DNA of 64,000 nt from Candidatus Poribacteria bacterium (GCA_965242965.1 OZ251518.1:2912001-2976000), one strand, 5' to 3'; counted from the stretch's first letter, positions 7,779 to 60,816 are shown. The notes: generated from the sequence alone by a model not told the origin. Program-made: numbers and translations.

Positions 7779-8447
7779 GAGGGGGTTCATAAATCGATGC
7801 GTTCCCGGTAGGAGAGACCTCCTGGTCTCGATTTCTTCCCGTAGCGCGGGGCCCCTCGGAGGTTTCCATACGCGCATCCGAGCGGGTTTCCCCCGCGAAC
7901 GCCATCGTCACGATGTGTGTTCCCCATCTGTAGTTTGTGCTCGCCTGATCACAAACAGGTCAGGATCAGGCGATCCTGAACTACAGAGCCTGGCGCGAGA
8001 ACGATGGCGAGGGACAGGCCCTCGCCCTACGGTGAAGTGCCGCTTTTTTTCGTAGCGCGGGGGCCTGTCCCCCGCGAGTGCCATCGTCACGATGTGTGTT
8101 TCCCCATCTGTAGTTTGTGATCGCCTGATCACAAACAGGTCAGGATCAGGCGATCCTGAACTACAGGGTCTAGCGCGCGGACGCTGGCGAGGGGTGAAGT
8201 GCCGTTTTTTCCCGTAGCGTGGGGGCCTGTCCCCCGCGAACGTTGGATTGCACGGACGATGGCGAGGGAAACCCTCTCGGATGCGCGTATGGCATCCGAG
8301 GGCCCTCGCCCTACGATGAAGGGGGCTTTCTGCCGCCGCGGCCCCGGGCGCGCCGCCCTATTGCATCGAGACCGGGAGGTCTCTCCTACCAAGAGGGCTC
8401 GATATTCGGGGGAGATAAATGCCGAAACGGATTTATGAAACACGCTC
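7779..8447. mobile_element. Mosaic REP cassette bounded by 14-bp inverted termini (MITE/BIME-like)
   Basis: GAGGGGGTTCATA at 7779 and TATGAAACACGCTC at 8434-8447; interior made of GTAG-headed palindromes. Confidence 0.75.
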
Positions 8448-8577
8448 ACATAAATACCATCGCGAAAAAAAAGATTTTTTTAATTGACAAAATTAATGCA
8501 TTTATGATAAACTATCAATAAGGCTTAATCAAAATTGGCTCAAAGCACAAAACCTTGAGACAAATTTGAAATTTTTC

Positions 8578-8606
8578 TTGACATTTCGTGAAAAATGTGG
8601 TATCAT
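8578..8606 (+). promoter_or_regulatory. Sigma70-type promoter (distal promoter of the giant surface protein gene)
   Basis: TTGACA-17 bp-TATCAT with a TGn extended -10, in AT-rich DNA. Confidence 0.7.
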
Positions 8607-8955
8607 ATATACGTGAAATGTCGTGCTGTTACGATTTTGATTGTTGATGTCCCGCTGAATCCGGGAGAAAGTTCGCGAAGCCCGTGCAATTGGCCGATTA
8701 AAACAGTTGCTTATTTTTGGCACATTTGTTAAAATCACACCTGTCACGATGGGTGAATTTTCAACCCGACAACAAAATACGCTTGCGGAACCGCCGAAAC
8801 GGGGTGTTTTCGGGGACGATTTGAAACACCAGCGATGTTTTGTATCGGCATAGGGAGCCTGAGCGGAAACCTTAAATTTTTAAGGCGCGGAAATAAGCCG
8901 CGGGGAGCAGTATGCCGAAAGCGATGGCGGCTGCATCCCGAACAGAACTTTTTGC

Positions 8956-8985
8956 TTGCTTTTCGCGCGCAAAATCGTGTATAAT
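8956..8985 (+). promoter_or_regulatory. Sigma70-type promoter (proximal)
   Basis: TTGCTT-18 bp-TATAAT. Confidence 0.6.
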
Positions 8986-9223
8986 AATCCTATCCTAGGA
9001 TGCCGTGCCTCTTGGGGTAGGAACGTGTAAATGGAGAGCAGCACCGAACGTTTCTGAAGCAGCTACTGCATCAGAAACCGACATTGTTGAACTCTACCGA
9101 AAATAGTTGGATAGACATGCCGCCGCGCCGCGCGTCTTTTGCTTCCCGCTCAAACGATGTCTATCCAAAGAAAACTCAGTCTGAGTCTTGCGTTTACGCA
9201 GACTTCATGAGGAGGATAAGTTA

Positions 9224-12200
9224 ATGAAAAAACGAACGTTCGTTTGTTTTTTGATTTTTACATTGTGTGTTTTTCACAGTTCGCTGCCAGGCACTGTTTT
9301 CGGACAGGATGCCTCGCTAGCCGAACAGGTACTGGAAAAATACAGCGAGACGTTGCAACGGGAGGACATTCAAGAAATCCTTCCGGATGTCCTGGAGGGG
9401 CTTAAAGCACCGAATATTCAAGCACTCTTGAATCCGGATACTATCACGCTCGTCGTGACCCAGCCGGATCTGCTTGCGCGATTCGTGCCTGACATAGACC
9501 CGAAATTCGTAACGCTGCTGAAAGAGGATGCGGAACTCAAGACGATGCTCCAAGATGCGCAAGTGCAGAAATTGCTTACGCAGCCTGCAGCCATCGACGA
9601 ACTTGCAGCCGCGCTGAACGTAGTGGAGCCTCCGCCGGAAGTGGCACCACCTGTAGAGATGCCGCCAGTAGAGGAGCCGCCGGTAGTCGTTGACCCGCCG
9701 GAAGTGACACCACCCGTAGAGATGCCGACTTCGCTCGCTCAGCAAGTGCTTGCCGCGCATAGCGCGACGCTCATGCGAGCCGATATTCAAGCGGTACTCC
9801 CGGCTGTCTTGGAGGGGCTTAAGGCACCGGATATTCAAGGAATCCTGAATCCGCAGACTATCGGGTTAGTCGTCGCGAATCCAGATATTCTAACGGACTT
9901 CGTGCCTGGAATAGACCCGGCCTTCGTAACGCTGCTGAAAGAGGATGCGCAACTCAAGACGATGCTCAGCGATATGCAAGTTCAAGAGTTGCTGCAGAAT
10001 CCTGCCGCAATTGACGAACTCGCAGCGTTGCTCAACGTCGGAGAACAACCGGCTGTTGACCCGCCGGAGGTGGCACCACCCGTAGAAATGCCGCAGGAGG
10101 AAGTGGCACCACCCGTAGAGATGCCGACTTCGCTCGCTCAGCAAGTGCTTGCCGCGCATAGCGCGACGCTTATGCGGGCCGATATTCAAGCGGTTCTCCC
10201 GGATGTCTTAACGGCTTTGCAAGCTCCGGATATTCAAGAGCAACTGAATCCGGCTATCATCGGTGCAGCTATCGCGAATCCAGACATATTAGCGGCCGTC
10301 GGGGTTGAGCAGCCTTTCATCGACTTGCTGAAAACGGATGCGGAACTCCAGACAATGCTCAGCGATATGCAAGTGCAAGCATTGCTGCAGAATCCCGCCG
10401 CAATTAACGAACTCGCAGGGTTACTTGTTGGCGAACAGCCGGTGGAACCACCAGTAGAGCCGCCCGTTGTAGTGGATCCGCCACCTATTGTGCCGCCCGT
10501 TGGACAGGCAGATCCGTTCGCGCCGATAACACCGGCAAACGAATCGATTGTTGGCAAATCCCGTCTCGGCGGACTTGATAACAATAGACTCTCTGGCAGA
10601 CAATTTGTGAGTGAAGTCTTTGAAGCAATGGGAATCTCGTTGGAGACCTTGGCGGCTTTCGGATACACGCAAGACAAGGTGATTGACGAAATCCTTAATC
10701 TGGTTCCCCAGGGCATGATTCCGAAAAAGCAGATCAAGCAGGTTCTCGCCTCCAAGCATATCAAATACTTTGACGATGTGATTGATGGGCAAGACCTTGG
10801 GCAACAACTCGATTACGAGAATTTTGGAAACGCCATCACACCGATGCTCTTGGAGTTGGCTTACCAAAATGAGCCTAACCGCAAATACGTCACGAGAGAT
10901 AACCTGAACGTTTACGCGCGTGTGCCGTCAGCGAACGTCGGTGGGGTTCAGTTTAGCCTTACTGATGGGCGGACGGTGGAAGGAACGCAAATCACTTCTG
11001 CAGCATTCGGAGCAGATACGTTCCCGTATACCTTCCGTTTGGAAGAAACGCTCGCCGCGACGAACCTGCCTGCATGGCCGGGTTTGGACTCGCAGTTGTT
11101 TTCCAACGTTGTTCTTCGCTACTCGCAAACCGGGTTGACAGGCGACTATATCGCCGTTGAGATGCAACCGGCAACCGGTGCAGATGGCGGTGTCGTTTGG
11201 GAAACGGAGATAGGTATCACGGCAGGTAGCACTTACTACTACTTTGAAGTAATGCTCGCCGAACCGGTGACACTTGAGGTGCTGGATCGGGAGAAGATTG
11301 CCGCTATTGTGCAGCATGTGCTAGGCGGGAATACCGTGAGTATGGCTGAAGTGCTGCATGCAACGAAGTCCTACACGATTGAAGGATGGGCAATGCCAGA
11401 CCCGCGCAACCTTCAACTCGCAGACCGCGGTATCATCAACGCGATTTTCACGTCAGACTTCAAAGCCGCTCTGATTGGTGCAATGGCTGGCCCAATTAGC
11501 AAAGCAACCAGTGGGCAGCAACTGACTGCCAACGACATCGTGAACGCGCTAGGAAAACACCAGAGGAAACTTCAGAACATCCTCTTCCGGAACGCTAACG
11601 CGTTGACAACACAGTTTGAGAACGCATTCGACCCGATGTTGTCCTCAGTCTTCACTCTCCCGCGTATTGATGCCGCAACGGAATCCATCTGGGCAGCCAG
11701 TATTGATTCCATTGCCGATGGCAACTATTACTTGGGTGCCGTTGTTCTCGATGCGAATGGAAATCCGCTGGATCAGATGCAAGGCGAATTTACCGTTGAT
11801 ACCAGCGCGCCAGATGCAGGCATTCATATTACCCCAGGCGCAAACGCCACCGGGTATATGAACGAAGAAGGCGTTTATGTCGCCACCGCGCCAGCAGCTG
11901 GCACTACCGCAACACTGAATATCACGGGGACCCCGAAGGTGGCTGACGTAGCACCGGGCGAAGGGTATCTCTTCTATCAAGAGATTAAACTGGATGCCGA
12001 CGGGATGCCGCAAAGCGCGTGGGCACCGCTCACGGTGGATGCCACGATGCTTGCATCGCGTATCTGGGATGAAACCCTTGCACAGTTGGACCGGCAGGGA
12101 GCTATTCCCAAGCAGTTCTCGTTTATCCAAGGCGTGCCTTTTGAGCAAGTCTTGGCACTGCTCAGCCCCGGGCTGATTCAACAGTATGCCAACCCGTTCC

Positions 12201-19980: not shown

Positions 19981-20604
19981 ATGTTTGAAGCAAAATTGAG
20001 AACGCGGCTTGAGACAGTCCTCTCTATTCTCGCAACCAAAATGGTTGCCATCGGCATCACGGCGAATATGGTGACGCTCTTCGGGTTCGTGGTGAACCTC
20101 ATCGCAACCTTCTTCTTCGCGAAGGGATACCTTGTGACAGGGGGCATTCTCATTCTGTTAGGGGGGAGTTTTGATACACTTGATGGAGCAGTTGCACGGG
20201 CTCAGAGCCGTCTCCGGCCATCAGGCGCGCTCCTTGATTCTGTCATCGACCGGTATTCGGAAGGCTTCCTCTTCCTCGGCGCGCTGATTTACTTCTACGG
20301 ATTAGAGAGTCTGCTCGGGATAACCCTCGCGTTCGGCGCATGGTTCGGTTCAATTCTGGTGAGTTATGTGAGAGCCAGAGCCGAAGGGCTCCAGATAACT
20401 TGCAAGGTGGGGTTCATGCAACGTCCGGAACGCATTATCCTCTTCGGTGCCGGCACGCTTTTGCAAGGCGTGCTGTGGCACAAATTTCCCTCCCTCCAAG
20501 CCAGCGGCATGATTCTCCTCTGCACGCTTGGCATCTTGACGCTTACGTCGCATATTACTGCCATCCACCGATTGATTTTTTCGTATCAGGAATTGGGCCG
20601 TTAG
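19981..20604 (+). CDS. CDP-alcohol phosphatidyltransferase (PgsA / PIP synthase-like)
   Basis: ANMVT, DTLDGAVAR...GALLDSVIDRYSE, SYVRARAE, GFMQRPER. Confidence 0.92.
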   Translation: MFEAKLRTRLETVLSILATKMVAIGITANMVTLFGFVVNLIATFFFAKGYLVTGGILILLGGSFDTLDGAVARAQSRLRPSGALLDSVIDRYSEGFLFLGALIYFYGLESLLGITLAFGAWFGSILVSYVRARAEGLQITCKVGFMQRPERIILFGAGTLLQGVLWHKFPSLQASGMILLCTLGILTLTSHITAIHRLIFSYQELGR

Positions 20605-20606
20605 TT

Positions 20607-21410
20607 GAGGGTGTTTCATATCTCAATGCCTTCCCGGTAGGCGAGACCTCCTGGTCTTGACATCCGTAAAACATCGGGAGAGCATGGCGAGGGACAGGCC
20701 CTAGCCTTACGGGCCGCGGCACGTTGTTTTCACCGTAGCGCGGGGGCCTGTCCCCCGAGATCACACCCGTGAAAAAACGCCTCTTCAGGTCCTTTAGGTC
20801 CTGCATGTCTATAGTATCCCCGACCTCAAAAAAAACCCTAAGGTCCTTTAGGTCCTTAATAGTAGAATACACACCGCTGGAAAATATTAAGGTCCTAACG
20901 GACCTTGAGGACTTGGCTGTCTGCATGTGCTATAGACATTAAGGTCCTACGGACCTTGAGGAGACTGTCGTTCAGGAGCACCTGCTCCCGAACGGGCGCA
21001 TGGCGAGGCGAGCCCCTTCCGGGCCCGTAGCGCGGGGGCCTGTCCCCCGCGATCGTTCGATCTGCGCGAAAAACGCACGCAGACCAAGGCCGTCTCTCGT
21101 TCCGATCGAGGCACGGCGAGGGACAGGCCCTCGCCCTACGGTGAAACGGAGACGGCTTTGCACACCGTAGCGCGGGGGCCTCGCCTGCCATACGCGCAGG
21201 CGGGCGGGTTTCCCCCGCGATCGCCCGATCTGCGCGAAAAACGCACGCCAACCAACGCCGTTTTCCGTTCCGCGCCGGCGGGATGGATTCTGGGTGGTAA
21301 AAAAATTTAACTAGGAAAGAAAAAAGCAGTACGGTAGTAAAGCTGATTTTTCTCGCCACGAGGTTCCTAATCTTGGAAATCTTGAAAATCGTGTGAATCC
21401 TGCTTCTGCT
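20607..21410. repeat. Mosaic REP cluster between convergent genes (left terminus only seen)
   Basis: GAGGGTGTTTCATA at 20607; GTAG palindromes; AGGTCCTACGGACCT modules; AAATC(T/C)TG 9-mers near 21370. Confidence 0.75.
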
Positions 21411-21422
21411 CCTGTTGTTTTG

Positions 21423-22736
21423 CTAAGGACACACAAACTTCCCCAAAACCTTTCGCATGGACGCGCCAGTGGCGGCTGGAACGTTGCCTGCCTGTCCGTG
21501 TAACGCTTCGTTCGCGAGGATTGCAAAGGCTATCGCTTCTTTCGCATCGCTGTTTTCTACGGAGAGAACGATGCTATCGGGGAAGATTTGGGCTAATCGG
21601 CGCATGAGGGTTTGGTTTTGGGTGCCGCCGCCGCTGATGTAGAGTCTGTCTATTTTGCATCGAGACCGGGAGGTCTCGCCTACGGTGTTGCATCGAGACC
21701 GGGAGGTCTCTCCTACTGAAGAACATTGAGACTGGGAGGTTTCTCCTACGGTATTGCATCGAGACCGGGAGGTCTCTCCTACCGGTGTTTGTTGCGTCTG
21801 GGAGGGCTCTCCTACGGAGACGAATTGTTTGACATACTGCGCGATGGACTGCACCGTCAATTCTGTTACTGTGGCGATGCAAGCATCGTCATCTAATCCG
21901 CGCGCGAGGCATTGCGCGAGACAGGTTTGCGCGAAGGTAACGCCGAACATTTCACGTCCGGTCGTTTTCGGTGGAGGTTGCGAGAAGAAGGGGTGCGTTA
22001 ACCACTCCTCAACGAGTGGGAGATAGGGGGTGCCTTGCGCGGCACGCTGGCCGCTTGTGTCAAATCGTTCGGTGCCGCCGGTTATCTCGGAGACGACAGT
22101 GTCGATTATCATGTTGCCGGGGCCGGTATCGGAGGCGGCGATGAATTCAAGCGTGCAATTGGCGGGAAGGACGGTGATATTGGCGATGCCGCCGATGTTG
22201 AGGAGCCCGCGAGTTTCGTGTGTGTCGCGGTAGAGGAGGTAATCGGTATAGGCGACGAGGGGCGCGCCTTGTCCGCCGGCTGCCATATCTGCGACGCGAA
22301 AATCGGCGATTGTCGGAACCCCGGTCTGGTGCGCAATCACGGCGGGTTCGCCGATTTGTAAGGTTGATGGATAGGCGGCGTTGGGCAGATGGTGAATCGT
22401 CTGTCCGTGTGAACCGATGAGCGCGATGTCCCTCGCCGGGATACCGTGCTTTTTCAAGAGTGCCTTGACAGCGTCAGCAAACAAATGGCCGAGTCTGAAA
22501 TGCATCTCACATATCTTATCGACGCGCCCTGTCTCCGGATGACAGAGCGCGAGGATACTGTCCTGCACACTCGGCGGAAAAGGGACGGTGTCAAAGGCGA
22601 TGAGCGTAGCGCGCGTCGCAACGCCGTGGCCTTCAATCTCAACGACAGCCGCATCAATACCGTCTGCAGAGGTACCGGACATGAGGCCGATGACACGTTT
22701 TTTCTCTCGTTTCAGAAGTTCATAAAAAGGTTGCAT
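21423..22736 (-). CDS. anmK: Anhydro-N-acetylmuramic acid kinase, with five tandem in-frame REP units
   Basis: GLMSGTSADGID, GSHGQT, DFRVADMAAGGQGAPL, DTGPGN, PKTTGRE, KEAIAFA. Confidence 0.95.
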   Translation of the reverse strand: MQPFYELLKREKKRVIGLMSGTSADGIDAAVVEIEGHGVATRATLIAFDTVPFPPSVQDSILALCHPETGRVDKICEMHFRLGHLFADAVKALLKKHGIPARDIALIGSHGQTIHHLPNAAYPSTLQIGEPAVIAHQTGVPTIADFRVADMAAGGQGAPLVAYTDYLLYRDTHETRGLLNIGGIANITVLPANCTLEFIAASDTGPGNMIIDTVVSEITGGTERFDTSGQRAAQGTPYLPLVEEWLTHPFFSQPPPKTTGREMFGVTFAQTCLAQCLARGLDDDACIATVTELTVQSIAQYVKQFVSVGEPSQTQQTPVGETSRSRCNTVGETSQSQCSSVGETSRSRCNTVGETSRSRCKIDRLYISGGGTQNQTLMRRLAQIFPDSIVLSVENSDAKEAIAFAILANEALHGQAGNVPAATGASMRKVLGKFVCP

Positions 22737-23980: not shown

Positions 23981-25013
23981 GTGTGCCTCCAAAGATAAGT
24001 TCATAAAATGCCTTCCGCAGGGGGAGGATGCCCTGTCTGTCGGCATCGGGATGGACGCGATTTGTTAATAAAATGGCGGCGCGGTTGCTTTTGAGACAGA
24101 CGCGGAGGGAGGTGCCGGTGAAGCCGGTATGATAGATGGAGCCGTCTGCCATGATGCGCCAGCCGATGCTGCGGGGTTCGCCTTCTGCAGGGTAAAGGGC
24201 GCGCATCGCAGCCAGACTTTCGGGGGACAGAACCTCGGTGCCGCCAGCCATGAGCATCCTGCAAAATGCCGCGAGTTCTGCCGCGGTAGAGAAGAGCCCC
24301 GCGTTCCCAGAAACGCCGCCGAGAAAATGCGCGTTTTCATCATGCACCTGCCCGACAATGACTCCTTCGCGCCAGTCGTGGCGCGCGTAGTTGACTTTTC
24401 GGCGTTCAAAACTGTTGCCGCTTTCGGTGGCGGCGCAGTTATCATGCCATGCAGGCGGAGGATTAAAGCCTGTCCGTTTCATGTGCAACGGCGAGAAGAT
24501 ACGCGCGTGCGCAAGGGCATCCAGCGGTTCGCCTGTTACCTTGGAGATGAGCGCGCCGAGAACAATGTAACCCAGGCAGCTGTAAAGTGCCTTCTCACCC
24601 GGCGGCGAGACGAGAGAGAGTGTGCTGAGATAATCGACGGCTCTTTCTGGCGAATCTGTGCCGAGATAGACAGGGCTCCAGTCGGGTAATCCAGATGTAT
24701 GCGTCAGCAGGTGCCGAAGAGTAATGCGTGGATGTCGGAATTCGGGCAGATAGGTAACTGCCGGTGTATCCAGTGCAACCTGTCCTTTTTCCACGAGTTG
24801 CATGCAGAGTGTCGCGGTGACGATGGGCTTCGTCAAAGAGGCAAGATCGAAGAGTGTGTTGCGGTGCATCGAGAGACGTTTCGGCACAACGGCGCGGTAT
24901 CCGAACGCCTCGTGAATATGCACTGCATCGGCGGTGAGGACGTAGACGACTGCACCGGGACACACATTTTCGGCGATGCTATTTTTGATGAGGGTTGCAA
25001 TGAATTTTTCCAT
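23973..25013 (-). CDS. Serine hydrolase, beta-lactamase/AmiE-like (probable muropeptide amidase)
   Basis: FDLASLTK (SxxK), LLTHTSG, YSC, VHDENA, HTGFTG; upstream of namZ-anmK. Confidence 0.88.
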   Translation of the reverse strand: MEKFIATLIKNSIAENVCPGAVVYVLTADAVHIHEAFGYRAVVPKRLSMHRNTLFDLASLTKPIVTATLCMQLVEKGQVALDTPAVTYLPEFRHPRITLRHLLTHTSGLPDWSPVYLGTDSPERAVDYLSTLSLVSPPGEKALYSCLGYIVLGALISKVTGEPLDALAHARIFSPLHMKRTGFNPPPAWHDNCAATESGNSFERRKVNYARHDWREGVIVGQVHDENAHFLGGVSGNAGLFSTAAELAAFCRMLMAGGTEVLSPESLAAMRALYPAEGEPRSIGWRIMADGSIYHTGFTGTSLRVCLKSNRAAILLTNRVHPDADRQGILPLRKAFYELIFGGTHG

Positions 25014-25019
25014 AATCGT

Positions 25020-25049
25020 ATAATAGCACATTTTCTGTTTTGATGTCAA
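25020..25049 (-). promoter_or_regulatory. Sigma70 promoter, probably giving a leaderless transcript of the recycling operon
   Basis: Minus strand TTGACA-18 bp-TATTAT with a TGn extension, ending 6 nt before ATG 25013. Confidence 0.6.
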
Positions 25050-25127
25050 TAAGTTTTTTCAGCGGCATCTTTTTTCTTGATTTGCAATGTGGTTATATGG
25101 TAAATTATTTATAGTCATTATTTAAAG

Positions 25128-25780
25128 GAGGGTGTTCCATATCTCGACGGATTCCCGGTAGGAGAGACCTCCCGGTCTCGATGCTGTGGTGGGCTTATTC
25201 TCTCGGGCAGGCGTGCCTGATTTTGACCTGTTCGGGCTCAGGTGTCCCGAACTACAGGGCTACATGTCTATAGCAGCACGTGTCGTGCCGTTTTCAAGGT
25301 CCGTTAGGGCCTTCATAAAAAAACGCGCGGCATGTCAAAATCTATTAAGGACCTAAAGGACCTTAGCATTCTTCGCGAGCGCGCGGGCTATAGACATTAA
25401 GGTCCTACGGACCTGAAGAGACTTTTTTCGTAGCGCGGGGGCCTGTCCCCCGCGAGCGTTGGATTGCACGGACGCTGGCGAGGGAAACCCGCTCGGATGC
25501 GCGTGTGGCATCCGAGGGCCCTCGCCCTACGATGAAAGGAAGGCGTTATTTTTATCGTAGGGCGGGGGCCTGTCCCCCGCGTTGTCCATCGTCACGATGT
25601 ATGTTACCCCATCTGTAGTTTGTGATCGCCTGATCACAAACGGGTCAGGATCGGGCGATCCTGCCCTACAGGAGGGATGCAGTCTGACACCAAAACGCAC
25701 GGCGAGGGACAGGCCCTCGCCCTACAGTGAGGGGGGGGCGTTTTTTCACCGTGACGTTGAGCGAGTTATGAAACACCCTC
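25128..25780. mobile_element. Mosaic REP cassette with inverted termini and a 24-bp flanking direct repeat
   Basis: GAGGGTGTTCCATA...TATGAAACACCCTC; ATTTATAGTCATTATTTAAAGGAG at 25107-25130 and 25781-25804. Confidence 0.85.
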
Positions 25781-25830
25781 ATTTATAGTCATTATTTAAA
25801 GGAGCATAGTCACCGACACCGCAAACATCC

Positions 25831-26205
25831 ATGCAACAACCAGAAACCTTAGCGCACGCCTTGCGTGACTACCAAAAAACCGAAAAACCGTGGGGCGGCT
25901 TTATCCAATATGTCCTCAACCAGCCTGTCACCGTCAAGATTTTGGAAATCCGTGCTGGCGAGCAGGTGAGTTATCAGTATCATCACCATCGGAGTGAACT
26001 GTGGATACCCCTTGATGCGGGCGCGTGCGTCAACATTGAAGGCGAAGTGCAACGTCCCGCACCCATGGAACCCGTTTTCATTCCGCAAGGCGCGAAACAC
26101 CAACTCATCGGCGAAGCACACGATTACCGCATCCTCGAAATTGCGTTCGGGCATTTTGATGAGGAAGACATCGTCCGGCTCTCAGACAAATACGGGAGAA
26201 GTTAA
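25831..26205 (+). CDS. Phosphomannose isomerase type II C-terminal cupin protein
   Basis: KPWG, SYQYHHHRSELW, ILEIAFGHFDEEDIVRLSDKYGR. Confidence 0.9.
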   Translation: MQQPETLAHALRDYQKTEKPWGGFIQYVLNQPVTVKILEIRAGEQVSYQYHHHRSELWIPLDAGACVNIEGEVQRPAPMEPVFIPQGAKHQLIGEAHDYRILEIAFGHFDEEDIVRLSDKYGRS

Positions 26206-26210
26206 GAATT

Positions 26211-27599
26211 ATGGGCCACTCATCTCTCACCTTGGAGATTAGCACCTCCTGGGATGCAGAACAGGGTAATGGCGATGCGCGGTTAGCAGCAATTCGTCCT
26301 CTCTTTGCAGCGGAAACCGATGCGCCGCTTGACGTGCTGGAGAGCAATCTCCGCGCATGGACGCGCAGTCACCTGCAAACCGAACATATCGCGCAGTGCC
26401 GCGCCGTGGCCGAACGCGCCCAGCAAGACTTTGACGCGCTTGTGACGATAGGCATCGGTGGTTCCGACCTCGGGGCCCGTGTCTTTCACGATACGTGCAA
26501 CCATCCGTATCACAATCGGATGTCGGTTGCGGAACGTGGCGGCGCGCCGGAAGTCTATTTCACGGGCGATACCTTCGACCCGAGGCGACTCATCGAGCTC
26601 CTAGAGATGCTGAATAGCCGAAACCTGCTCCACAAAACGCTCTTCAATGTCATCAGCAAATCCGGCAGGACGAGCGAGACAATCGCAACGTTGATGATTA
26701 TTCGGGAGACACTGCAACGGCACGGGCTCACATGGCAAAATCACGTCGTGGCAACGACAGGGTTAACCCCAGAAAGCGCGCTGTTTCAAATACATAAGAA
26801 GACACCCTTTTACAACGGTGAGTTGCTCCCGGTGCCCGAGGGTGTCGGTGGACGATTCTCCGCTTTTTCGCCGGTGGGGCTCTTCTTTCTGGCGATGACA
26901 GCCGGTAAAAATGAGACACCGGAGACGCGCATCTGTGCAGCGATGCAAGGCGTGCAACGCGCCGATGAAGACTTTCGCGCCGAATCATCCGTGGCCTATC
27001 AACTCGCACGATGGCTGCAGCTTGCTGAGGAACGCGAATGCATCGGCACTATTGTCTTCTACAATTATGCCGACAACAGCTGCCTCGGCGAGTGGTTCGT
27101 CCAACTCTATACCGAATCGATTCAGGAGCGCGGCGGTGGCGCGAACGTTATTCCTGCAAAAGGCCCGACGAGTAATCACTCCATTCTCAACGGCATTCTC
27201 AACGGCCCGCGGGATAAGGTTGTCCTCTTTATCCATTGGGAAAAACTGGGTGACGATGTGAATGTGCCAAAGGATACCGGCATCGGTGGGGAGTTCGCGG
27301 ATTTTGAGGGCATGTCACTGTCGCAAATTCAGACTGCGTCTTATCGCGGCACGGCGATGAGTTTCACCGAAAACGGCGTGCCGAACGCAACGTTAACCCT
27401 CCCGAAACGGGATATCGGTAACGTTTGTCACTTAATGCGCACGCTCATGGACACTGTCGCGGTGAAGGGCCGGTTGCAGGGTTTGCATCTCGATGACACA
27501 GAATTTGCGTTGGAAAGAGAGCGCACCTATCGCCAAGATGCCGTTGAAGACTACAAACGGCGGACAAGAGAAATTGCGATGGAAATGTTTAACACGTAA
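26211..27599 (+). CDS. pgi: Glucose-6-phosphate isomerase
   Basis: GIGGSDLG, VISKSG, VGGRFS, QLYTES, QDAVEDYK. Confidence 0.88.
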   Translation: MGHSSLTLEISTSWDAEQGNGDARLAAIRPLFAAETDAPLDVLESNLRAWTRSHLQTEHIAQCRAVAERAQQDFDALVTIGIGGSDLGARVFHDTCNHPYHNRMSVAERGGAPEVYFTGDTFDPRRLIELLEMLNSRNLLHKTLFNVISKSGRTSETIATLMIIRETLQRHGLTWQNHVVATTGLTPESALFQIHKKTPFYNGELLPVPEGVGGRFSAFSPVGLFFLAMTAGKNETPETRICAAMQGVQRADEDFRAESSVAYQLARWLQLAEERECIGTIVFYNYADNSCLGEWFVQLYTESIQERGGGANVIPAKGPTSNHSILNGILNGPRDKVVLFIHWEKLGDDVNVPKDTGIGGEFADFEGMSLSQIQTASYRGTAMSFTENGVPNATLTLPKRDIGNVCHLMRTLMDTVAVKGRLQGLHLDDTEFALERERTYRQDAVEDYKRRTREIAMEMFNT

Positions 27600-27659
27600 G
27601 TCTTACGCGGGACGCTTGCACCAGAGGCGCGATTTTCATCGGCACGTCTTACATTATTT

Positions 27660-27875
27660 GAGGGTGTTTCATAACGCCGTTTCGGTATTTATCCCGCCTT
27701 GGCGGGCGGGCGAATACCAGAAGGCATTGGGCCCACCTCTGTAGTTCGGGATCGCCCGATCCCGAACGGGTCAGGATCAGGCGATCCTGAACTACAGGAG
27801 GGATGCGGTCTGACAGCAAGACACATGGCGAGGGCCTGTCCCTCGCCCTACGTGAAAAGCGCGCCTACCGGGGAC
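27660..27875. repeat. REP cluster with a left cassette terminus
   Basis: GAGGGTGTTTCATA at 27660 followed by GTAG palindromes. Confidence 0.7.
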
Positions 27876-27911
27876 AACTCAGGGCATTTGCGTCTGTCTG
27901 GAGACGAAAAC

Positions 27912-29939: not shown

Positions 29940-30047
29940 TTCGATGTGTAAGCATTGACGTGGCACCCTGCAAGCCTATCTCAGAAACGCAGCATGCAAC
30001 AACGGCGCATGCTGCGCGATGGCGAGAGATATTCATATACCGAAAAA

Positions 30048-32645: not shown

Positions 32646-32715
32646 TTTGATGAGGGTTTGTTGGTGCGCTGACGTTATACTCATCAAAAATGAACGATGC
32701 ATTGCGAACGCAAAA

Positions 32716-38939: not shown

Positions 38940-38964
38940 CGTTTTGTTTTCCGAAGGCAGCAAT

Positions 38965-39180: not shown

Positions 39181-39182
39181 GG

Positions 39183-39656: not shown

Positions 39657-39959
39657 GAGGTTCTCCTGTTGAGACGAGGCGTTCTCTGTTACCAAGTGGT
39701 TTTTGGTTGTGACACGAATGCGAGGGACAGGCCCTCGCACTACGGTGGCGAGAAGTTTTTGGCCCGTAGCGCGGGGGCCTGTCCCCCGCGATCGTTCGAT
39801 CTGCGCGAAAACCGCACGCCAGCCACGGCCGCTGCCCCGCCAGAGGCATGGCGAGGGGAACCCGCTCGCCATGCGCGTGTGGCATGCGAGGGCCCTCGCC
39901 CTACGGTGCCAGCGGCACGTTGAGCGATTTATGAAACACCCTCATGTAACCTTCCGAGG

Positions 39960-41027: not shown

Positions 41028-41168
41028 AAGTTCTGCCTCCTGTGTCCATCTTGTGGGTATTTTAGCAACTTTCGTCATTTTTTTCAACAAAAAAAAGGAA
41101 AATGTGTTATACTATGCATAGTGGCGATGTCCTGAACAAGAATTGAAACCGCTCAGCGAGAAATTATT

Positions 41169-41686
41169 GAGGGTGTTTCATATTTCAATGTCTGCCCGGT
41201 AGGCGCGCCCGGTCTTGATGTCTTCCCGGTAGGAGAGACCTCGGGTCTCGATGTTCCCGTAGCGCGGGGGCCTGTCCCCCGCGTTGGCCATCGTCAGGAG
41301 TGGGCGTTTTAGGTCCTAAAGGACTAAAAGAACCAGAGACGTTTTTCCGTAGCGCGAACGATGGCGAGGGACAGGCCCTCGCCCTACGGTGAGGGGGATG
41401 GCGTTTTTTCATCGTAGCGCGGGGCCCCTCGGATGCCATACGCGCATCCGAGCGGGTTTCCCCCGCGATCACCATCGTCACGATGTGTTTACCTCTCTGT
41501 AGTTTGTGATCGCCTGATCACAAACGAGTCAGGATCAGGCGATCCTGACCTACAGCGGTGAGGCGGTCTGACAGCCAAACGCATGGCGAGAGACAGGTTT
41601 CCCTCGCCCTAAGTGAAGGGGAGGCGTTTTTTCACCGGAGCGCGGGGCCTGTCCCCGCGACGTTGAACGAATTATGAAACCTCCTC
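41169..41686. mobile_element. Mosaic REP cassette with inverted termini
   Basis: GAGGGTGTTTCATA at 41169 and TATGAAACCTCCTC at 41673-41686. Confidence 0.78.
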
Positions 41687-41732
41687 GCTTAAATTGCTGT
41701 GAAGTTTTTATTGCCTATAGAGGAAATAGCAA

Positions 41733-42833
41733 ATGGAAGCCCACTACCAAGATACCGCGTCCCACATTCGTGTGACAAACCTCACCGCGTTTCCCATGGG
41801 TGTCAAGTCTTATGTCAAGATTGAGACGAACATGGATGTCACCGGTTGGGGTGAAATTAACAACATGGAGCCCACCGTCTCCTGCGCGCTGGCACGTTCG
41901 CTGTCCGAACTCATCATCGGCGAGAACCCGACGCGCATTGAACATCTCTGGCAGCGCATGTTCCGCGCGCATCGCAACATCCGCGGTGGCGGTATCATGG
42001 TGCATACGCTTTCTGCCATTGATATGGCACTCTGGGATATCGCCGGCAAACTCTGGGGCGTGCCAGTGTATCGCCTCCTCGGCGGGCCCTGCCGCGACAA
42101 AATTTGGAAATATCCGAGCCCTAAGGCGATTAAAACCGGTCCCGGCGGTTCCAAACCGTTCGCAGGCACGCCTGACGAGATTGAGGGACTCCTGCAACGC
42201 GTTCGCGAGACAAGAGAAAAAGTCGGTTCCGACGGTGCTGTCATGTTTGACGCACACAGCTGCCTCCCGCCGCCGATTGTCAAGCAATTCGCGAGTTACC
42301 TCAAACCCGACGATTTGCTTTTTTTAGAGGAAGCATGGGTGCCCGGCAACATTGAAGTCATGCGCAAGGTTCGCGAATCTGTCCCTGTGCCTCTCGCTAC
42401 TGGCGAACGCGACCGGACGATTTGGGAGGTGCGCGAAATTTTGGAGGCGCAGGTGATTGACATCTTGCAACCCGATTGCGGGCACGGCGGCGGCATCACG
42501 CAGGTGAAAAAGGTAGCCGCCCTCGCCGAAGCGCATCACGTGCCGATAGCACCGCACTGCACGATGTCCTATCTCGGACTCACCGCCAGTTTCCAACTCG
42601 CCGCGTCCGTGCCGTTCTTCCTTATCCACGAAGGGTATGAGAACGTGTTGCCAGATGGCGTTGCGCACAAGACGTGGGTGATGGACGCAGAGGGATACGT
42701 TTCATTACCGGAAGGCCCGGGCTTAGGCGTTGAGGTTGACGAGGCGCGCGTCATTGAAGTAGGGAATGAATCCGGGAGGCGTTTCACCTGGCCCAATAGC
42801 CGTTTGAGGGACGGTTCTGTTGCTGATTATTAA
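41733..42833 (+). CDS. Mandelate racemase / acid-sugar dehydratase (DgoD-like)
   Basis: SAIDMALWDIAGK...PVYRLLGG, DAH, LEE, ATGER, QPD, APHC. Confidence 0.92.
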   Translation: MEAHYQDTASHIRVTNLTAFPMGVKSYVKIETNMDVTGWGEINNMEPTVSCALARSLSELIIGENPTRIEHLWQRMFRAHRNIRGGGIMVHTLSAIDMALWDIAGKLWGVPVYRLLGGPCRDKIWKYPSPKAIKTGPGGSKPFAGTPDEIEGLLQRVRETREKVGSDGAVMFDAHSCLPPPIVKQFASYLKPDDLLFLEEAWVPGNIEVMRKVRESVPVPLATGERDRTIWEVREILEAQVIDILQPDCGHGGGITQVKKVAALAEAHHVPIAPHCTMSYLGLTASFQLAASVPFFLIHEGYENVLPDGVAHKTWVMDAEGYVSLPEGPGLGVEVDEARVIEVGNESGRRFTWPNSRLRDGSVADY

Positions 42834-42835
42834 CC

Positions 42836-43222
42836 GGTAGGAGAGACCTCCTGGTCTCGATGTTCCCGTAGCGCGGGGGCCCTCGGATGCCACACGCGCA
42901 TGCGAGCGGGTTCCCCTCGCCATGCGTTTTGCTGTCAGACCTCATCACCCCTGTAGGTCAGGATCGCCTGATCCTGACCTGTTTGCGATCAGGCGATCGC
43001 AAACTACAGAGGTGGGCCCGATACGCACCACATCAAGACCAGGAGGGCGCGCCTACCGGAAGGCATCGAGACCGGGAGGTCTCTCCTACCAGCAGCGCGG
43101 GGGCTATCCACGCGACGTTGAGCGAGTTATGAAACACCCGCACTTAATCCTGGAAATCCTGGAAATCGTGTAAATCCTGCTCGTCATCGTGGAAATCTTG
43201 TAAATCGTGTAAATCCTGCTCC
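42836..43222. repeat. REP cluster with a right cassette terminus and tandem AAATCCTGG-type 9-mers
   Basis: TATGAAACACCCGC at 43128-43141; 9-mer tandem at 43147-43220. Confidence 0.75.
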
Positions 43223-43828
43223 TCATTCAAAAAGTCTCCAGACTTCACACGAAAATCCCGGCACCACCTCTTCCCCTGTCAGCGTGTCTTCGCGCGTGAG
43301 CAACGTGATGTCGGTTTCGGAACGATAGATTGTCACCGTTTGCGCCACTGGTTCGACAACCCAGACGAGCTGCGTGCCGGCATCCAAGTAGTTCAGCACT
43401 TTTTGGACAATCCGAAACTGCACGTCTGATGGAGAGACTACCTCTACCGCCAGGTCTGGTGGAATTTCAAACGCCTTGCGCCGTTCTTCCGGCAGCCGCG
43501 CGTTTGAGATAAACGCGATGTCGGGGATCAGGACGCGCTCGCCGACCTGGAATCCCGTGTCAGGTAGATAGACGCGGCCCAATTGATTCTCACGGACATG
43601 CGCCTGCAAATGCCAATCAATATTGGTGCTAATATCACCGTGTTCGCCTGATGTAGGTGACATCTCTATTAATTCTCCTTTGACGTATTCATATCCCTCT
43701 AAATCGCTCGCGAGGAATTCCTCCAAGGTCATCGCTGGCAGGGAGAGGGGTTCCTGCGCGAAATCTGATTCCTCTGTTGGTGGGGGTTGGATGCCCACTT
43801 CCGCGGGGTGAACTTGCGGTATGCTCAT
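43223..43828 (-). CDS. Uma2 family (DUF820) putative endonuclease
   Basis: YEYVKGEL, PDIAF, PDLAVEVVSPSD, YLDAG..LVWVV, VPGF. Confidence 0.92.
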   Translation of the reverse strand: MSIPQVHPAEVGIQPPPTEESDFAQEPLSLPAMTLEEFLASDLEGYEYVKGELIEMSPTSGEHGDISTNIDWHLQAHVRENQLGRVYLPDTGFQVGERVLIPDIAFISNARLPEERRKAFEIPPDLAVEVVSPSDVQFRIVQKVLNYLDAGTQLVWVVEPVAQTVTIYRSETDITLLTREDTLTGEEVVPGFSCEVWRLFE

Positions 43829-43847
43829 GTTTTTCTCCTCTTAATCT

Positions 43848-44065
43848 GAGGGTGTTTCATATATCGCTCAACGTCGCGGGGGACAGGCCCCCGCGCTACG
43901 ATAAAAATCAGACGCTCCTCAGTAGGTCAGGATCGCCTGATCCTGACCCATTCGGGAGCGGGCGCTCCCGAACTACAGAGGTGGGCCCGATGCCTTCCGG
44001 TAGGAGAGACATTGAGACCGGGAGGGCGCGCCAACCGGGAAGGCATCAATTTATGAAACACCCTC
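43848..44065. mobile_element. Short REP cassette with perfect 14-bp inverted termini and an 8-bp direct repeat
   Basis: CTTAATCT|GAGGGTGTTTCATA ... TATGAAACACCCTC|CTTAATCT. Confidence 0.85.
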
Positions 44066-44066
44066 C

Positions 44067-45440
44067 TTAATCTATCCACTCCATCGTTTGCCGGAGTTTC
44101 TCTTTGGCTTTCGCGTGGTCCCGGCGTGCCTGATAGAAGACGCGTTGCGCCTCGGTGAACTGCGCCTGCGCTTGGAATGCATCGTCAAATGTCAACCCGC
44201 GATAATTTGGCAATTCTACCGTGACTTCATCCAGCACGCGCTCAATTGCACGGAGCCGTTGCTCATAGATTTCCACGCGCCGCTGCTCAATCTCAATTCG
44301 TTCTTGCGCATTGGCGACAGCACGGTAATCGCGGCGGACTGCGACGCGGAGGAGGTCGCGCTTTTCGGCGGCATCCAAGTGGAGTCGCTCAAGTTCGGCG
44401 AGTTCTGCCGAGCGCAGGTTCTCTGTCTGTTTCCCATCGAAGAGCGGCAGGTTGAGATTGAACTGCAGTGCCCATCCCTCTTCGGCGCGGGGCGTGCGTT
44501 CAAAAATGCTCGGCACATCGCGTTCTCTGTCCAAAAGCACCGGCGTGTAGCGTGCGGTTGCATCCCACGTCCGTTTGCCGGGGTGCTGCTCCAATAACAC
44601 GCGCAGGTCGCGATAGCGTGCCTCGGCTGACACTTCCGGGAACCGGTTCCAGAGTGTTTCGCCGACGATGCGTTCTTGACGCGCGATGTCCCCCGCCAGG
44701 TCTCGCAGAGTGAGGCTATTTTTCAATGCCAGTTCGACAGCGGCTTCCAGCGTGATGTCATCCGCCGGCAAGGGTTGCGCGAGAGTGACGTTTGTGAGCG
44801 GGTCCAACCCGGTGAGCCGGATGAGTTCCGCCGTGTCCACGTCTAAGCGCCGCTGGAGTTCGTTCAAGGCGAGTTGCTGCTCCGATAATTCGAGTTCGGT
44901 ATTGAGGCGGCTCAGGAACAGCACGCGCTTTTTTTCGTGCTTAATTTGCGTGCCTTTGAGTTTTTTGACGAGTTCCACCTCAATCGCGCGGCGTTGGGCA
45001 ATCTCTTCCTGCGTCAAAATCATATCGTGCCAGAGGTTGCGGAGTTGGGAGATAACGTCTTTTTTAACGCGTTCCAACGCAATCGTCGATTTGCGGACGG
45101 CTTCCTGCGCCGTGTCTAACCCTTCTGGCACTTCACCGAATTGTGCGAGCAGCACGCTCAATTGGGCGCGGGAGAGGTAGTCCCACTCGTCGCTCGCGCC
45201 GTCCTTTTGGCGTTGATATTCGCCGGTGACACCTACCTGTGGCAGATAGATGGCGCGTGAGATGCGGTGATGTGCCTCGGCACGTGCCACGACTTTCTCG
45301 GCTTTTTTGACGGCCGCGTTGTTTTTCAAGGTGAGTTCGATGGCGCGTGCCGGCGTGAGGATGACGTGGCGTTGCGCGGGGACAGCACGGACGGCGAGTA
45401 AGAGTAAGCAGAGTGTCAGTGCTGTCAGTCGTGTGTTCAT
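44067..45440 (-). CDS. TolC family outer-membrane efflux protein
   Basis: Signal peptide, two OEP halves (AIELTLKNN...YLPQV; AVELALKNS...FPEV), LNLPLFDG. Confidence 0.85.
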   Translation of the reverse strand: MNTRLTALTLCLLLLAVRAVPAQRHVILTPARAIELTLKNNAAVKKAEKVVARAEAHHRISRAIYLPQVGVTGEYQRQKDGASDEWDYLSRAQLSVLLAQFGEVPEGLDTAQEAVRKSTIALERVKKDVISQLRNLWHDMILTQEEIAQRRAIEVELVKKLKGTQIKHEKKRVLFLSRLNTELELSEQQLALNELQRRLDVDTAELIRLTGLDPLTNVTLAQPLPADDITLEAAVELALKNSLTLRDLAGDIARQERIVGETLWNRFPEVSAEARYRDLRVLLEQHPGKRTWDATARYTPVLLDRERDVPSIFERTPRAEEGWALQFNLNLPLFDGKQTENLRSAELAELERLHLDAAEKRDLLRVAVRRDYRAVANAQERIEIEQRRVEIYEQRLRAIERVLDEVTVELPNYRGLTFDDAFQAQAQFTEAQRVFYQARRDHAKAKEKLRQTMEWID

Positions 45441-56182: not shown

Positions 56183-56324
56183 TTTTTCGTATTTCCTTCG
56201 GTGGTTTGACGTTTCTTCCATGCTAGGCATGCCAGTAGGAGAGACCTCCTGGTCTCGATGTAGTCTTGCCTCCTGGTCTCGATGCAGTCTTGCTCCCATC
56301 GGACACTTTGCGAACGCCGAAACA

Positions 56325-58271: not shown

Positions 58272-58821
58272 TAAACCAAATTTTATTTTAACTTAATTGC
58301 GAATTTTTGTCAAGTTTTTTTCGTGAAGTTCAGAGCGATTCAGTTTTCCTCGGTAGGAGAGACCTCTTGGTCTTGACTCGCCTCGGTAGGAGAGCCCGCT
58401 AAACCAAGTTTTATTTTATCTTAATTGTCGGATTTTTGTCAAGTTTTTTCGTGAAGTCTCGATTTCCGGTGGGAGAGCCCTCCCGGTCTCGATGCAATTC
58501 AGTGAACGTGTTTCATAACTTGCTCAACGTCGCAACTGATGAGGGATTTCTGCTGGCTTTAGGTCTGTAGGACCTGAAGAGCCGTTTTTTCAAAAGCGAT
58601 TTCGCCGCTGCGAATGAACACCGCCGTTTTTCCGTAGCGCGGGGGCCTGTCCCCCGCGATCTTCCGGTAGATCGCAGCATGGCGAGGGACAGGCCCTCGC
58701 CCTACGGTAAGCGAGGCCGTTCTGGATACCGTAGCGCGGGGCCTGTCCCCCGCGACGTTGAGCGATTTATGAAACTCCCTCATTTTATATTAATTCCTGA
58801 TTTTTGTCAAGTTTTTCCTGA
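58272..58821 (-). promoter_or_regulatory. Three homologous copies of a sigma70 promoter, separated by REP units
   Basis: TTGACA-17/18/17-TAAAAT; -35 boxes at 58308-58313, 58437-58442 and 58805-58810. Confidence 0.75.
58504..58781. mobile_element. REP cassette with degenerate inverted termini
   Basis: GAACGTGTTTCATA ... TATGAAACTCCCTC. Confidence 0.7.
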
Positions 58822-58848
58822 CAATCATCACATCTCTCCAAAAGCGCG

Positions 58849-59259
58849 TTACATTCCCAAAAGTTCCGCCTTGTATGCCTCAACAATCGCATCCAAAACG
58901 GCTTCCGGAATCTCTTCCAGTTGCGCCGCTAATTCCTCCTCAACATTTACCATGAGGCTGTGATCGAACGTTTCACGTTCCTCGCATGCGTCAAAGAATT
59001 CGCCGTGTGCTTCCAACATGCGTGCCAAGCGTGCCGGGGTCAAACCTGCTGAGATGCCGTGCAGGTCCCACGCGGTGCCTCGGTAGCCTTTCTCATAATC
59101 TGCGCCGAGGTGTTGCTGCGCGATTGCCTCGCGTTGCGCGCCGTCCGCGCCGCTGGTTTCTATCGCTTCCGCCGCGGCGATGGCGCGGGCATCTAATTCT
59201 ATCTGGAAGGCGGTGGAGGCATCTGCCGCCGCCACGGGGTAAATTTTGTAGGTGTTCAT
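58849..59259 (-). CDS. Hypothetical acidic protein
   Basis: 136-aa ORF with host-like codon use; no motif recognised. Confidence 0.6.
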   Translation of the reverse strand: MNTYKIYPVAAADASTAFQIELDARAIAAAEAIETSGADGAQREAIAQQHLGADYEKGYRGTAWDLHGISAGLTPARLARMLEAHGEFFDACEERETFDHSLMVNVEEELAAQLEEIPEAVLDAIVEAYKAELLGM

Positions 59260-59467
59260 TTTGTGTATTTCTCAATCAGCGTTCGCGGGGGCCTATCCCC
59301 CGCGCTACGGTGAGGGGAGTGTCTCGCGGTTCGTAGGGCGAGGGCCTGTCCCTCGCCGTGCAACGATCGCGGGGGACAGGCCCCCGCGCTACGGTTCTGG
59401 TGCGGGTCTGGGAGGTCTCTCCTATTGCATCGAGACCGGGAGGTCTCTCCTACCAGGTCCGCGCTTC

Positions 59468-60250
59468 TTATACTACTGCGGAGAGCCCACCGTCAATATT
59501 AATCGCGGTGCCGGTGATGAACGCCGCGCAATCTGAAACCAGAAAGGCGACTAAATTGCCGACTTCCTCTGGTTCGCCTAGCCGTCCGAGTGGATGTTCC
59601 GCGCCGCGCTCGTTCCAATACGCCGCTAGCGTTCCCGGTGAACCCGCCGCCTTCCACGCGCGTTCTCCCTGCGCGCTCTTAATAGAGGTGAGACACACGG
59701 TGTTTACCAAGATCTTGTGCGGTAAAAGTTCTTTGGAGAGTGCCTTCGTTAACGCGATGCCTGCCGCCCGACTGACAGAAGTGGGGACTGAAACTGCTCC
59801 CGGCTGTTTGCCGCCCGGATGTGTGATGTTGATGATACGGCCGCTACCGTTCGCTTTCATGTGCGGGATGACTAAGCGCGAGCAGCGCACCGCGCCCATC
59901 AACTTCAAATCCAGATCGGCGTACCATTCTGCGTCGCTAGTCGCTTCAAACGCGCCTGCTGCTGAACGTCCGGCGTTGTTGACTAGGATGTCGATCTTGC
60001 CAAAATGCGAGGCGGTTTGTCCGATAAAATGCTGTAGCGTTTCAGGCGCGGTTACGTCTGCAGGGATTGCGAGGACTTCGCTGCTGGTTTGCGCTTGGAT
60101 TGCCGCTGCGGCATCCGTTAAAACTTCCTCGCGTCTTGCACAGATGGCGATGTTCGCGCCTTCGGCGGCGAGGCGCGTCGCGATACCTTTGCCAATTCCT
60201 TCGCTGCCGCCGGTAATCACGGCGACTTTTCCGCTTAATCCGAGTTCCAT
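59468..60250 (-). CDS. Short-chain dehydrogenase/reductase (atypical active site)
   Basis: TGGSEGIG, VNNAG, TSVSRAA in place of YxxxK, TGTAINIDGG; AGGAGG RBS. Confidence 0.92.
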   Translation of the reverse strand: MELGLSGKVAVITGGSEGIGKGIATRLAAEGANIAICARREEVLTDAAAAIQAQTSSEVLAIPADVTAPETLQHFIGQTASHFGKIDILVNNAGRSAAGAFEATSDAEWYADLDLKLMGAVRCSRLVIPHMKANGSGRIINITHPGGKQPGAVSVPTSVSRAAGIALTKALSKELLPHKILVNTVCLTSIKSAQGERAWKAAGSPGTLAAYWNERGAEHPLGRLGEPEEVGNLVAFLVSDCAAFITGTAINIDGGLSAVV

Positions 60251-60320
60251 TGATGATTTCCTCCTATAAACATTTGACCCAAAGGGGTTTTATATCCAAG
60301 TGCAAACTGAAACCTAAATT

Positions 60321-60816
60321 GAGGGTGTTTTATAACTCCGTTTCGGTATTTATCCCGCCTTGGAGGGCGGGCGAATACCGGCAGGCATCGGGCCCTTCTC
60401 TGTAGTTTGTGATCGCCTGATCACAAACGGGTCAGGATCAGGCGATCCTGACCTACAGGGGTGATGTGGTCTGACACCAAAACGCTTGGCGAGGGCTTGT
60501 TCCTCGCCATGCTTGCTTGCCGCTTTCACCGTAGGGCGAGGGCCTGTCCCTCGCCATGCCTAAGGTCTGTAAGACCTTAATGTCTATAGCAGCCTTAATA
60601 AAAAAAACGCGCGGCGTGTCAAAAACTATTAAGGACTTAAAGGACCTTAGGATTCTTCGCAGGCACGCGTGCTATAGACATTAAGGTCCTACGGACCTAA
60701 GAGACGTTTTTTTAAGGGGGCTTTCTGCCGCCGCGCCCCCGGTAGGCGCGCCGTCCTATTGCATCGAGACCAGGAGGTCTCTCCTACCGGGATCCATCGA
60801 GTTATGAAACACCCTC
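60321..60816. mobile_element. Mosaic REP cassette with inverted termini
   Basis: GAGGGTGTTTTATA at 60321 and TATGAAACACCCTC at 60803-60816. Confidence 0.8.

Follow-up and report, generated by a model that had tools for sequence, protein, structure and literature searches.

Introduction

Repetitive extragenic palindromic (REP) sequences with a GTAG head are recorded from eight phyla in the survey of Di Nocera et al. (2013; PMC3733652), which describes several types per genome as well as REPs lying within genes. The same survey describes dimers of the GTAG-15 type within long palindromes in Anabaena variabilis and dimers of the CGTC-1 type within 41-bp palindromes in Halothiobacillus neapolitanus. 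REPs are also associated with insertion sequences (ISs), and in the account of Delihas (2011; PMC3184786) IS621, IS1594 and others target them. Open questions about REP arrays include their route to new loci and the building of mosaic clusters. Here we analyse a 64,000-nt stretch of the chromosome of a bacterium of the sponge-associated Candidatus Poribacteria (GCA_965242965.1 OZ251518.1:2912001-2976000; hereafter the window), in which six REP arrays of several families are enclosed by inverted pairs of a 14-bp terminus; our statements about the source genome rest on this window. [quoted passage not shown]

Results

The 14-bp terminus is far more frequent in the window than expected and occurs mainly as inward-facing pairs. 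The motif GAGGGTGTTTCATA has 15 matches with at most 2 mismatches on the two strands, compared with a shuffle expectation of 0.20, and none of 100 shuffles attained 15. A 16th copy, at 7779, is degenerate and reads GAGGGGGTTCATAA, with one substitution and one T missing. These 16 termini make up six pairs and four solo ends (Table 1). The left end lies on the plus strand and the right end on the minus strand in all six pairs, and paired ends carry 0–2 mismatches each apart from that at 7779. Searching with the 10-mer core at 1 mismatch detected no partner for any of the four solo ends, and reading through the sequence of 20560-21460 revealed no partner terminus for the solo end at 20607. Spurious matches from a looser motif search (3 errors including indels) are excluded from these counts. 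The six pairs and four solo ends had been listed in a first-pass annotation of the window; all of its 14-mer positions were recovered at up to 2 mismatches except 7779, which is present in the degenerate form, and its pairing holds in orientation, in spacing and in the lack of degenerate partners for the solo ends.

The same terminus bounds a transposase gene in a related genome. A scan of a contig collection with the 14-mer listed at least 107 loci, mostly chance or unrelated matches, and among the matches listed, 9 loci come from six Poribacteria assemblies. At one of them (L039), two exact inverted 14-mers bound an element with a gene for a DDE transposase, which matches Pfam DDE_Tnp_1_3 at 35.4 bits (cut-off 27), so that a copy enclosing a transposase, one of the checks suggested in the first-pass annotation, does exist. 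The reading frame of this copy (2100-3096), the only complete one among the fetched loci, is frameshifted, with residues 1–53 and 44–332 of a 332-aa relative aligning in different frames; the copy may be dead, the sequence may contain an error or the frameshift may be programmed. Homologues of the transposase are numerous (772 at E<=1e-5 among 4660 candidates) and mostly 332 aa long; many lie on contigs of 1.1–1.3 kb, and the named ones belong to Candidatus Poribacteria. Two further Poribacteria assemblies hold truncated copies of the transposase beside the 14-mer (L019 and L014). At four loci in two Poribacteria assemblies (L023, L024, L088 and L103), the contig stops within 20 bases of the 14-mer, a sign that those genomes hold the repeat in several copies and that short-read assembly is interrupted by it. 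Among NCBIfam families, the transposase matches IS982 (NF033520) best, with 55, 57.5 and 60.9 bits for three 332-aa relatives and 49.6 bits for the L039 open reading frame (ORF). Because these scores fall under the cut-off of 130, we call the parent an unclassified member of the DDE_Tnp_1 (IS4/IS5/IS982) clan. No related solved structure was found at E<=1.

The terminus is also found outside this lineage. The same 14–15 bases end an 896-bp IS5-family element of Bacteroidales (L016 2001-2896) with TAA on both flanks, whose transposase matches NF033580 at 175 bits (cut-off 110), and about 25 loci among the matches listed are Bacteroidales, Muribaculaceae, Porphyromonadaceae and others by title. 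BLASTP detected no similarity between the Bacteroidales and the poribacterial transposase (E 8.5). The terminus common to both could reflect either shared ancestry of the ends or convergence.

Sequences flanking the paired ends point to a target-site duplication. The 8 bases outside the left end were compared with the 8 bases outside the right end in 8 cognate pairs, namely the six pairs of the window and the elements at L039 and L010. Identity reached at least 7/8 in five of the eight cognate pairs and in none of the 56 non-cognate pairs. The flanking 8-mers are 81% A+T, compared with 45% in the window. An 8-bp duplication of an AT-rich target thus appears to accompany insertion. Matching cognate flanks imply that both ends of an element came together, as expected of a DDE transposase, and the ends sit at stop codons or just upstream of ribosome-binding sites because the target is AT-rich.

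The interiors of the elements consist of three REP families arranged along a recurring backbone. By hairpin search, the window contains 79 GTAG-headed hairpins with a stem of at least 7 bp, and by motif it contains 119 modules of three families. R1 has a GCG(R)GGG stem and the loop CCTGT, and its pairs have spacers of ~21 nt; R2 comprises variants with a core of the GATCGCCTGATC type, usually arranged in inverted doublets, and its types almost always form head-out inverted pairs 1–3 nt apart; R3 is GTAGGAGAGACCTCCTGGTCTC. With the A end placed left (end classes are given below), the recurring order is terminus, R3, optional inserts, R2 doublet, R1, terminus, and the only element without an R2 doublet is the B/B element at 58504. 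Recurrent composite units of 124–160 nt (families D8 and D17) were also found. The hairpins named in the first-pass annotation are all present, together with its AGGTCCTACGGACCT and TGCTATAGACAT modules, but its six "unrelated" hairpin types collapse into R1, R2 and R3. It was right that interiors differ between loci; free shuffling of a combinatorial cargo is an overstatement, as the backbone order recurs with insertions and duplications.

A third small element of 102–135 bp, with 12-bp inverted repeats (ATGTCTATAGCA type), lies between AGGTCC...GGACCT hairpins at 20805-20939, 25264-25397, 32457-32589 and 60580-60681. It nests in REP arrays with and without the 14-mer shell and accounts for the two additional modules of the first-pass annotation.

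The sequence inside the 14-mer sorts into three end classes. Class A ends (6 copies) run from the terminus into ~16 nt resembling the 3' tail of an R3 unit and then into a complete R3, at a spacing that is constant in all 6 copies. Class B ends (7 copies) have 28 bp in common, including a conserved 14-nt stretch directly inside the terminus, after which an inverted R1 comes next in four of the seven. Class C ends (3 copies) conserve at least 38 bp and then enter an R2 doublet. These classes combine as A/B three times, A/C twice and B/B once in the window. A REP lies 11–139 bp inside every terminus (16/16), and outside the termini no REP occurs within ~500 bp in 15 of 16 cases, the exception belonging to E58504. 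The shell-specific sequence is a very small part of each element, comprising the terminal inverted repeat (TIR) and 4–24 further conserved bases. The MITE-like shell proposed in the first-pass annotation is upheld by the transposase-bearing element at L039, by the 8-bp duplications and by the REPs inside all 16 ends.

Related genomes contain similar units. The 150-bp element at L010 comes from a complete chromosome of Poribacteria with a HemE 73% identical to the window's. One terminus of the element is exact and the other has 2 mismatches; the element is flanked by a perfect 8-bp duplication and holds an R3-type REP doublet, and its spacer from terminus to the R3-like REP differs in length and sequence from that of the window elements. 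With the read-through translation of E43848 as query, 10 predicted proteins matched, five of which bear terminus-derived peptides. One of them (P0241) is collinear with E43848 except for an additional R1 pair, and in another (P0244) a B end is combined with a C end. No full-length identical copy of E43848 was present among these 10 partial predicted-protein matches. A blastn comparison of the 107 loci listed from the collection scan with the window gave only two short matches (L023 and L088), and none of the loci fetched was orthologous.

REP arrays are not confined to the shells. The six pairs hold 33 of the 119 modules and 86 lie outside them, and 13 further arrays have no terminus at all, several of them with the same backbone. 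Segments of 100–250 bp with 82–92% identity link the shelled elements with one another and, equally, with terminus-less arrays (7779 and 35947, 145 bp, 91%; 25128 and 32146, 159 bp, 90%; 52386 and 20607, 204 bp, 91%). Because these segments are equally common to terminus-less arrays, array content has been exchanged or copied independently of the shell. The cargo described in the first-pass annotation is not special to the shell, and the same architecture occurs without termini.

These observations bear on whether the shell ever carried its cargo. The shell might move nearly empty, as two TIRs and little more, with its interior then favoured as a landing site, REPs invading each locus independently and no cargo ever transported, and several of our results agree with this: every locus has a different interior, modules and long segments are shared just as often with terminus-less arrays, REPs here insert and duplicate locally even within genes, and the terminus-to-R3-like spacer of the L010 element differs, as independent entry predicts. 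We nevertheless consider this explanation unlikely. Identical terminus-to-REP junctions recur at six loci for class A, at four of seven for class B and at three for class C, and E60321 shares 188 bp of collinear cargo, running inward from the terminus, with the array at 27660 (88% identical). None of the six pairs is an empty or near-empty shell: even the smallest, with perfect TIRs and a perfect target duplication, holds four REPs, and P0241, from another contig, is collinear with that same element.

No transposase or remnant of one was detected inside the window. Pfam searches of 54 ORFs (42 + 12) found no transposase, including the Y1_Tnp domain of REP-associated tyrosine transposases (RAYTs), tblastn with a related transposase gave a best E of 1.2, and the ORF at 8129-8449, inside an element, has no Pfam match; the first-pass annotation had likewise found no transposase here. 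It is very improbable, then, that each pair is a full-length IS that decayed in place while its transposase was replaced by REPs locus by locus. Truncated one-terminus IS copies do exist in other Poribacteria (L019 and L014), but the window elements are 218–669 bp long and consist wholly of repeat modules with no trace of a transposase, and three end types with recurring junctions are unexpected from independent decay.

REPs also occur in frame within genes of the window. In the uroporphyrinogen decarboxylase gene hemE (1434-2648, +), an R1 is present as a 75-bp (25-aa) unit within 1997-2097, and the insert is bounded by a 25-bp direct repeat of native coding sequence (24/25 identical). Close relatives have 0, 1 or 2 copies of this unit, a copy-number polymorphism in a conserved enzyme. 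Other long ORFs with internal REPs are hemY-like (5921-6014), anmK (21652-21815) and two further genes (56231-56300 and 62035-62062). Among these inserts are a tandem pair of a 48-bp unit and five R3 units, of which four lie 33 bp apart; unit lengths are multiples of three where measured, and the REP-bearing ORFs keep their Pfam domains. Tandem "REP + flank" units of 65–66 bp are found at 31471-31585 and 35036-35145. The long flank repeats around repeat insertions suggest slippage or another insertion route at hairpins.

Such duplications raise the idea that the termini are mere passengers on arrays that are copied through duplication and recombination or through the REP machinery, an HUH tyrosine transposase that works on single strands, with no part for a DDE enzyme. 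Its attraction lies in the exact 21-bp repeat around E25128, which resembles the 25-bp hemE duplication and the tandem units at 31471-31585 and 5921-6014, and in the spread of terminus-less arrays. However, 8-bp duplications flank five of eight pairs, including one transposase-bearing copy, in two species, and the termini are always outermost and inward-facing, and we regard this explanation as highly improbable.

Finally, the 14-mer can scarcely be a host-factor site or an array-boundary motif of a system like the bacterial interspersed mosaic elements (BIMEs) instead of a transposon end: it does always stand at an array edge beside a gene boundary, and 13 terminus-less arrays do without it, but the identical sequence bounds a transposase gene, target duplications exist, assemblies of other genomes break at it, and within 25000-44999 neither promoter-like sites (9; 10.2 expected) nor terminator-like sites (27; 22.6 ± 5.6 expected) are enriched. 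We make no regulatory claim, given this lack of enrichment. Rfam and tRNA scans of the window gave no match. Two other arrangements were ruled out, insertion of an IS into REP arrays by the opposite topology and the inner ends of a composite transposon by the opposite orientation.

The genes of the window include those for an Ig-like protein of 2598 aa that bears a type IX secretion tail, leucine-rich repeat (LRR) and tetratricopeptide repeat proteins and enzymes of haem biosynthesis. The window HemE is 69–74% identical to Candidatus Poribacteria proteins and 87–93% identical to its closest relatives. Gene content and HemE jointly assign the window to the Poribacteria. Coding tandem repeats unrelated to the elements occur at 36314-36943 (nine 66-bp units in an LRR protein gene) and at 9283-10301 (~400-bp units in the gene of the 2598-aa Ig-like surface protein).

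Table 1. Terminus-bounded elements and one-ended arrays of the window, with two elements from other Poribacteria. T, terminus; flank identity, matching bases between the 8-mers adjoining the two ends; element interiors are read with the A end on the left.
Feature	Position	Strand	Length (bp)	Left terminus	Right terminus	Flank identity	Interior	Surroundings
E7779	7779..8447	.	669	7779-7792 (+), degenerate, class A	8434-8447 (-), 1 mismatch, class C	7/8	R3, R2 doublet, R1 pair, R2 doublet, R1, R3 (duplicated version of backbone)	8-mers 7771-7778 CCATAAAT and 8448-8455 ACATAAAT
One-ended array	20607..21280	+		20607-20620 (+), exact, class A	none		REP array and one nested 135-bp element	starts 3 bp past stop of CDP-alcohol phosphatidyltransferase-like gene
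E25128	25128..25780	.	653	25128-25141 (+), 1 mismatch, class A	25767-25780 (-), exact, class B	7/8	T R3 R2 (nested element) R1 R1 R2-doublet R1 T	exact 21-bp direct repeat 25107-25127 and 25781-25801; divergent genes on either side
One-ended array	27660..27851	+		27660-27673 (+), exact, class C			R2 doublet, R1	
One-ended array	39717..39943	-			39930-39943 (-), exact, class B		R1 pair	
E41169	41169..41686	.	518	41169-41182 (+), exact, class A	41673-41686 (-), 2 mismatches, class B	3/8	T R3 R1-pair R2-doublet R1 T	divergent genes on either side
One-ended array	42833..43141	-			43128-43141 (-), 1 mismatch, class B		first 49 nt those of terminus-less array 32146	left side begins at stop codon of enolase-superfamily gene
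E43848	43848..44065	.	218	43848-43861 (+), exact, class B	44052-44065 (-), exact, class A	8/8	T R3 R2-doublet R1 T (minimal form; as it lies, R1, R2 doublet, R3)	exact 8-bp duplication CTTAATCT, 43840-43847 and 44066-44073; 19 bp upstream of Uma2-family gene start
E58504	58504..58781	.	278	58504-58517 (+), 2 mismatches, class B	58768-58781 (-), 1 mismatch, class B	4/8		only terminus with a REP just outside (13 bp)
E60321	60321..60816	.	496	60321-60334 (+), 1 mismatch, class C	60803-60816 (-), exact, class A	5/8	T R3 (nested element) R1 R2-doublet T	convergent genes on either side; right terminus gives two bases of TGA stop of NAD(P)H-hydrate repair gene (60815-62440, -)
L039 element	2001-3122		1122			7/8	DDE transposase	
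L010 element	1865-2014		150			8/8		

Discussion

The paired units of the window share their TIRs with a transposase-bearing element, are flanked by target duplications in three of six cases, lack coding capacity and have recurrent terminus-to-REP junctions. A full-length copy of the IS elsewhere in the genome would supply the transposase in trans. REPs close to the termini, and probably also the R3, R2 doublet and R1 backbone, would already have been inside when the element moved, and the interiors would later have been remodelled by REP insertion, by tandem duplication of "REP + flank" units and by nesting of the third element, and may also have been exchanged with terminus-less REP arrays. 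A RAYT presumably drives REP insertion, and none was found among the 54 window ORFs scanned. Recombination within shared REPs could generate the mixed ends (A/B, A/C and B/B here, B/C elsewhere) as well as the one-ended arrays. The elements are most readily seen as selfish DNA at gene boundaries.

Several observations weigh against this interpretation. A convincing duplication is lacking in three of the window's six pairs (5, 4 and 3 of 8 bases), and the exact 21-bp flanking repeat of E25128 is not explained by a DDE cut with an 8-bp stagger. Solo ends make up four of the 16. Neither an empty site nor an insertion polymorphism was seen among the fetched loci, none of them orthologous to the window, and Pfam on 54 window ORFs and tblastn revealed no autonomous IS and no RAYT. 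The subterminal sequences of classes A, B and C are unlike those of the L039 element, and the true parent in the source genome is as yet unseen. No two window interiors are alike end to end, whereas MITE copies are near-identical. Since segments are shared with terminus-less arrays, co-transposition of the whole cargo is not demonstrated, and homogenisation must also work free of the shell.

Our results only partly distinguish carriage of the cargo by the shell from later accumulation. We tentatively propose, as a possibility short of a likely one, that a DDE-type shell carries whole REP arrays to new intergenic sites, that recombination among REPs swaps ends and sheds one-ended arrays, and that terminus-less arrays with the same backbone are in part former shells. 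Of the REP modules in these 64 kb, a quarter lies within an outer boundary formed by a recognisable transposon end with a target duplication, and this boundary provides a dated, polarised insertion event as a reference for later array growth. Transport of the cargo with the shell would couple two unrelated transposition systems, and REPs, which move as single strands through tyrosine (HUH) enzymes, would gain a second, en-bloc route through the cut-and-paste of an unrelated IS. If instead the cargo does not travel, the shells mark hotspots of REP entry. Either way, REP dynamics would become open to comparison among close relatives. On the practical side, these repeats break short-read assemblies and yield spurious ORF calls.

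The closest precedent is the enclosure of REP dimers by an unrelated inverted repeat in Anabaena and Halothiobacillus (PMC3733652). The part of that survey describing them has a single dimer in a fixed palindrome, which it does not follow up, and here the enclosed unit is a multi-family array. Section 7 of the survey reports no transposase-bearing parent or target duplication, whereas the shell described here is tied to a DDE IS. The window elements resemble bacterial MITEs, as portrayed in the relevant parts of PMC3733652 and PMC3184786, in their IS-identical TIRs, fixed-length duplication, lack of coding capacity and position next to genes. Their sizes, 218–669 bp, extend beyond the 70–300 bp given in PMC3733652, and unlike MITEs they are not near-identical copies, since beyond 18–38 bp per end the interior is all REPs and specific to the locus.

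The GTAG heads, inverted doublets and dense intergenic distribution recall BIMEs and the REP doublets forming hairpins (REPINs) mobilised by RAYTs, as do the mosaic clusters with alternating orientation and recurring spacers, at least in the sections of PMC2817692, PMC3116915 and PMC3337134 that treat them. Alternating REP clusters with recurrent linkers are present in the window, a likeness in architecture only. Unlike in those systems, the phylum and the sequences are different, no RAYT was seen among the 54 window ORFs scanned, a quarter of the modules lies inside DDE-type repeats, and REPs also occur in frame within genes. The first-pass annotation had drawn a further contrast, with BIMEs built from one REP family, which fails: BIMEs of Escherichia coli mix several types of palindromic unit with other motifs. 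REP-targeting ISs likewise associate an IS with REPs, but in the cases treated in PMC3184786 the REP lies outside the IS ends and here it lies between them. The parent transposase shares with the IS982 family, its best NCBIfam match, the DDE_Tnp_1_3 domain, a single ORF and an IS length of ~1.1 kb, but its 55–61 bits, under the cut-off of 130, place it outside the family on this score.

Our literature search returned no description of this IS family, of its MITEs or of dense GTAG-REPs in Poribacteria, and the 14-mer or its complement appears in no paper of the literature searched. Within that literature, the IS and MITE family and the REP-rich lineage appear to be new. The composite architecture itself combines, in an unusual way, two kinds of bacterial repeat already known and is not a new category.

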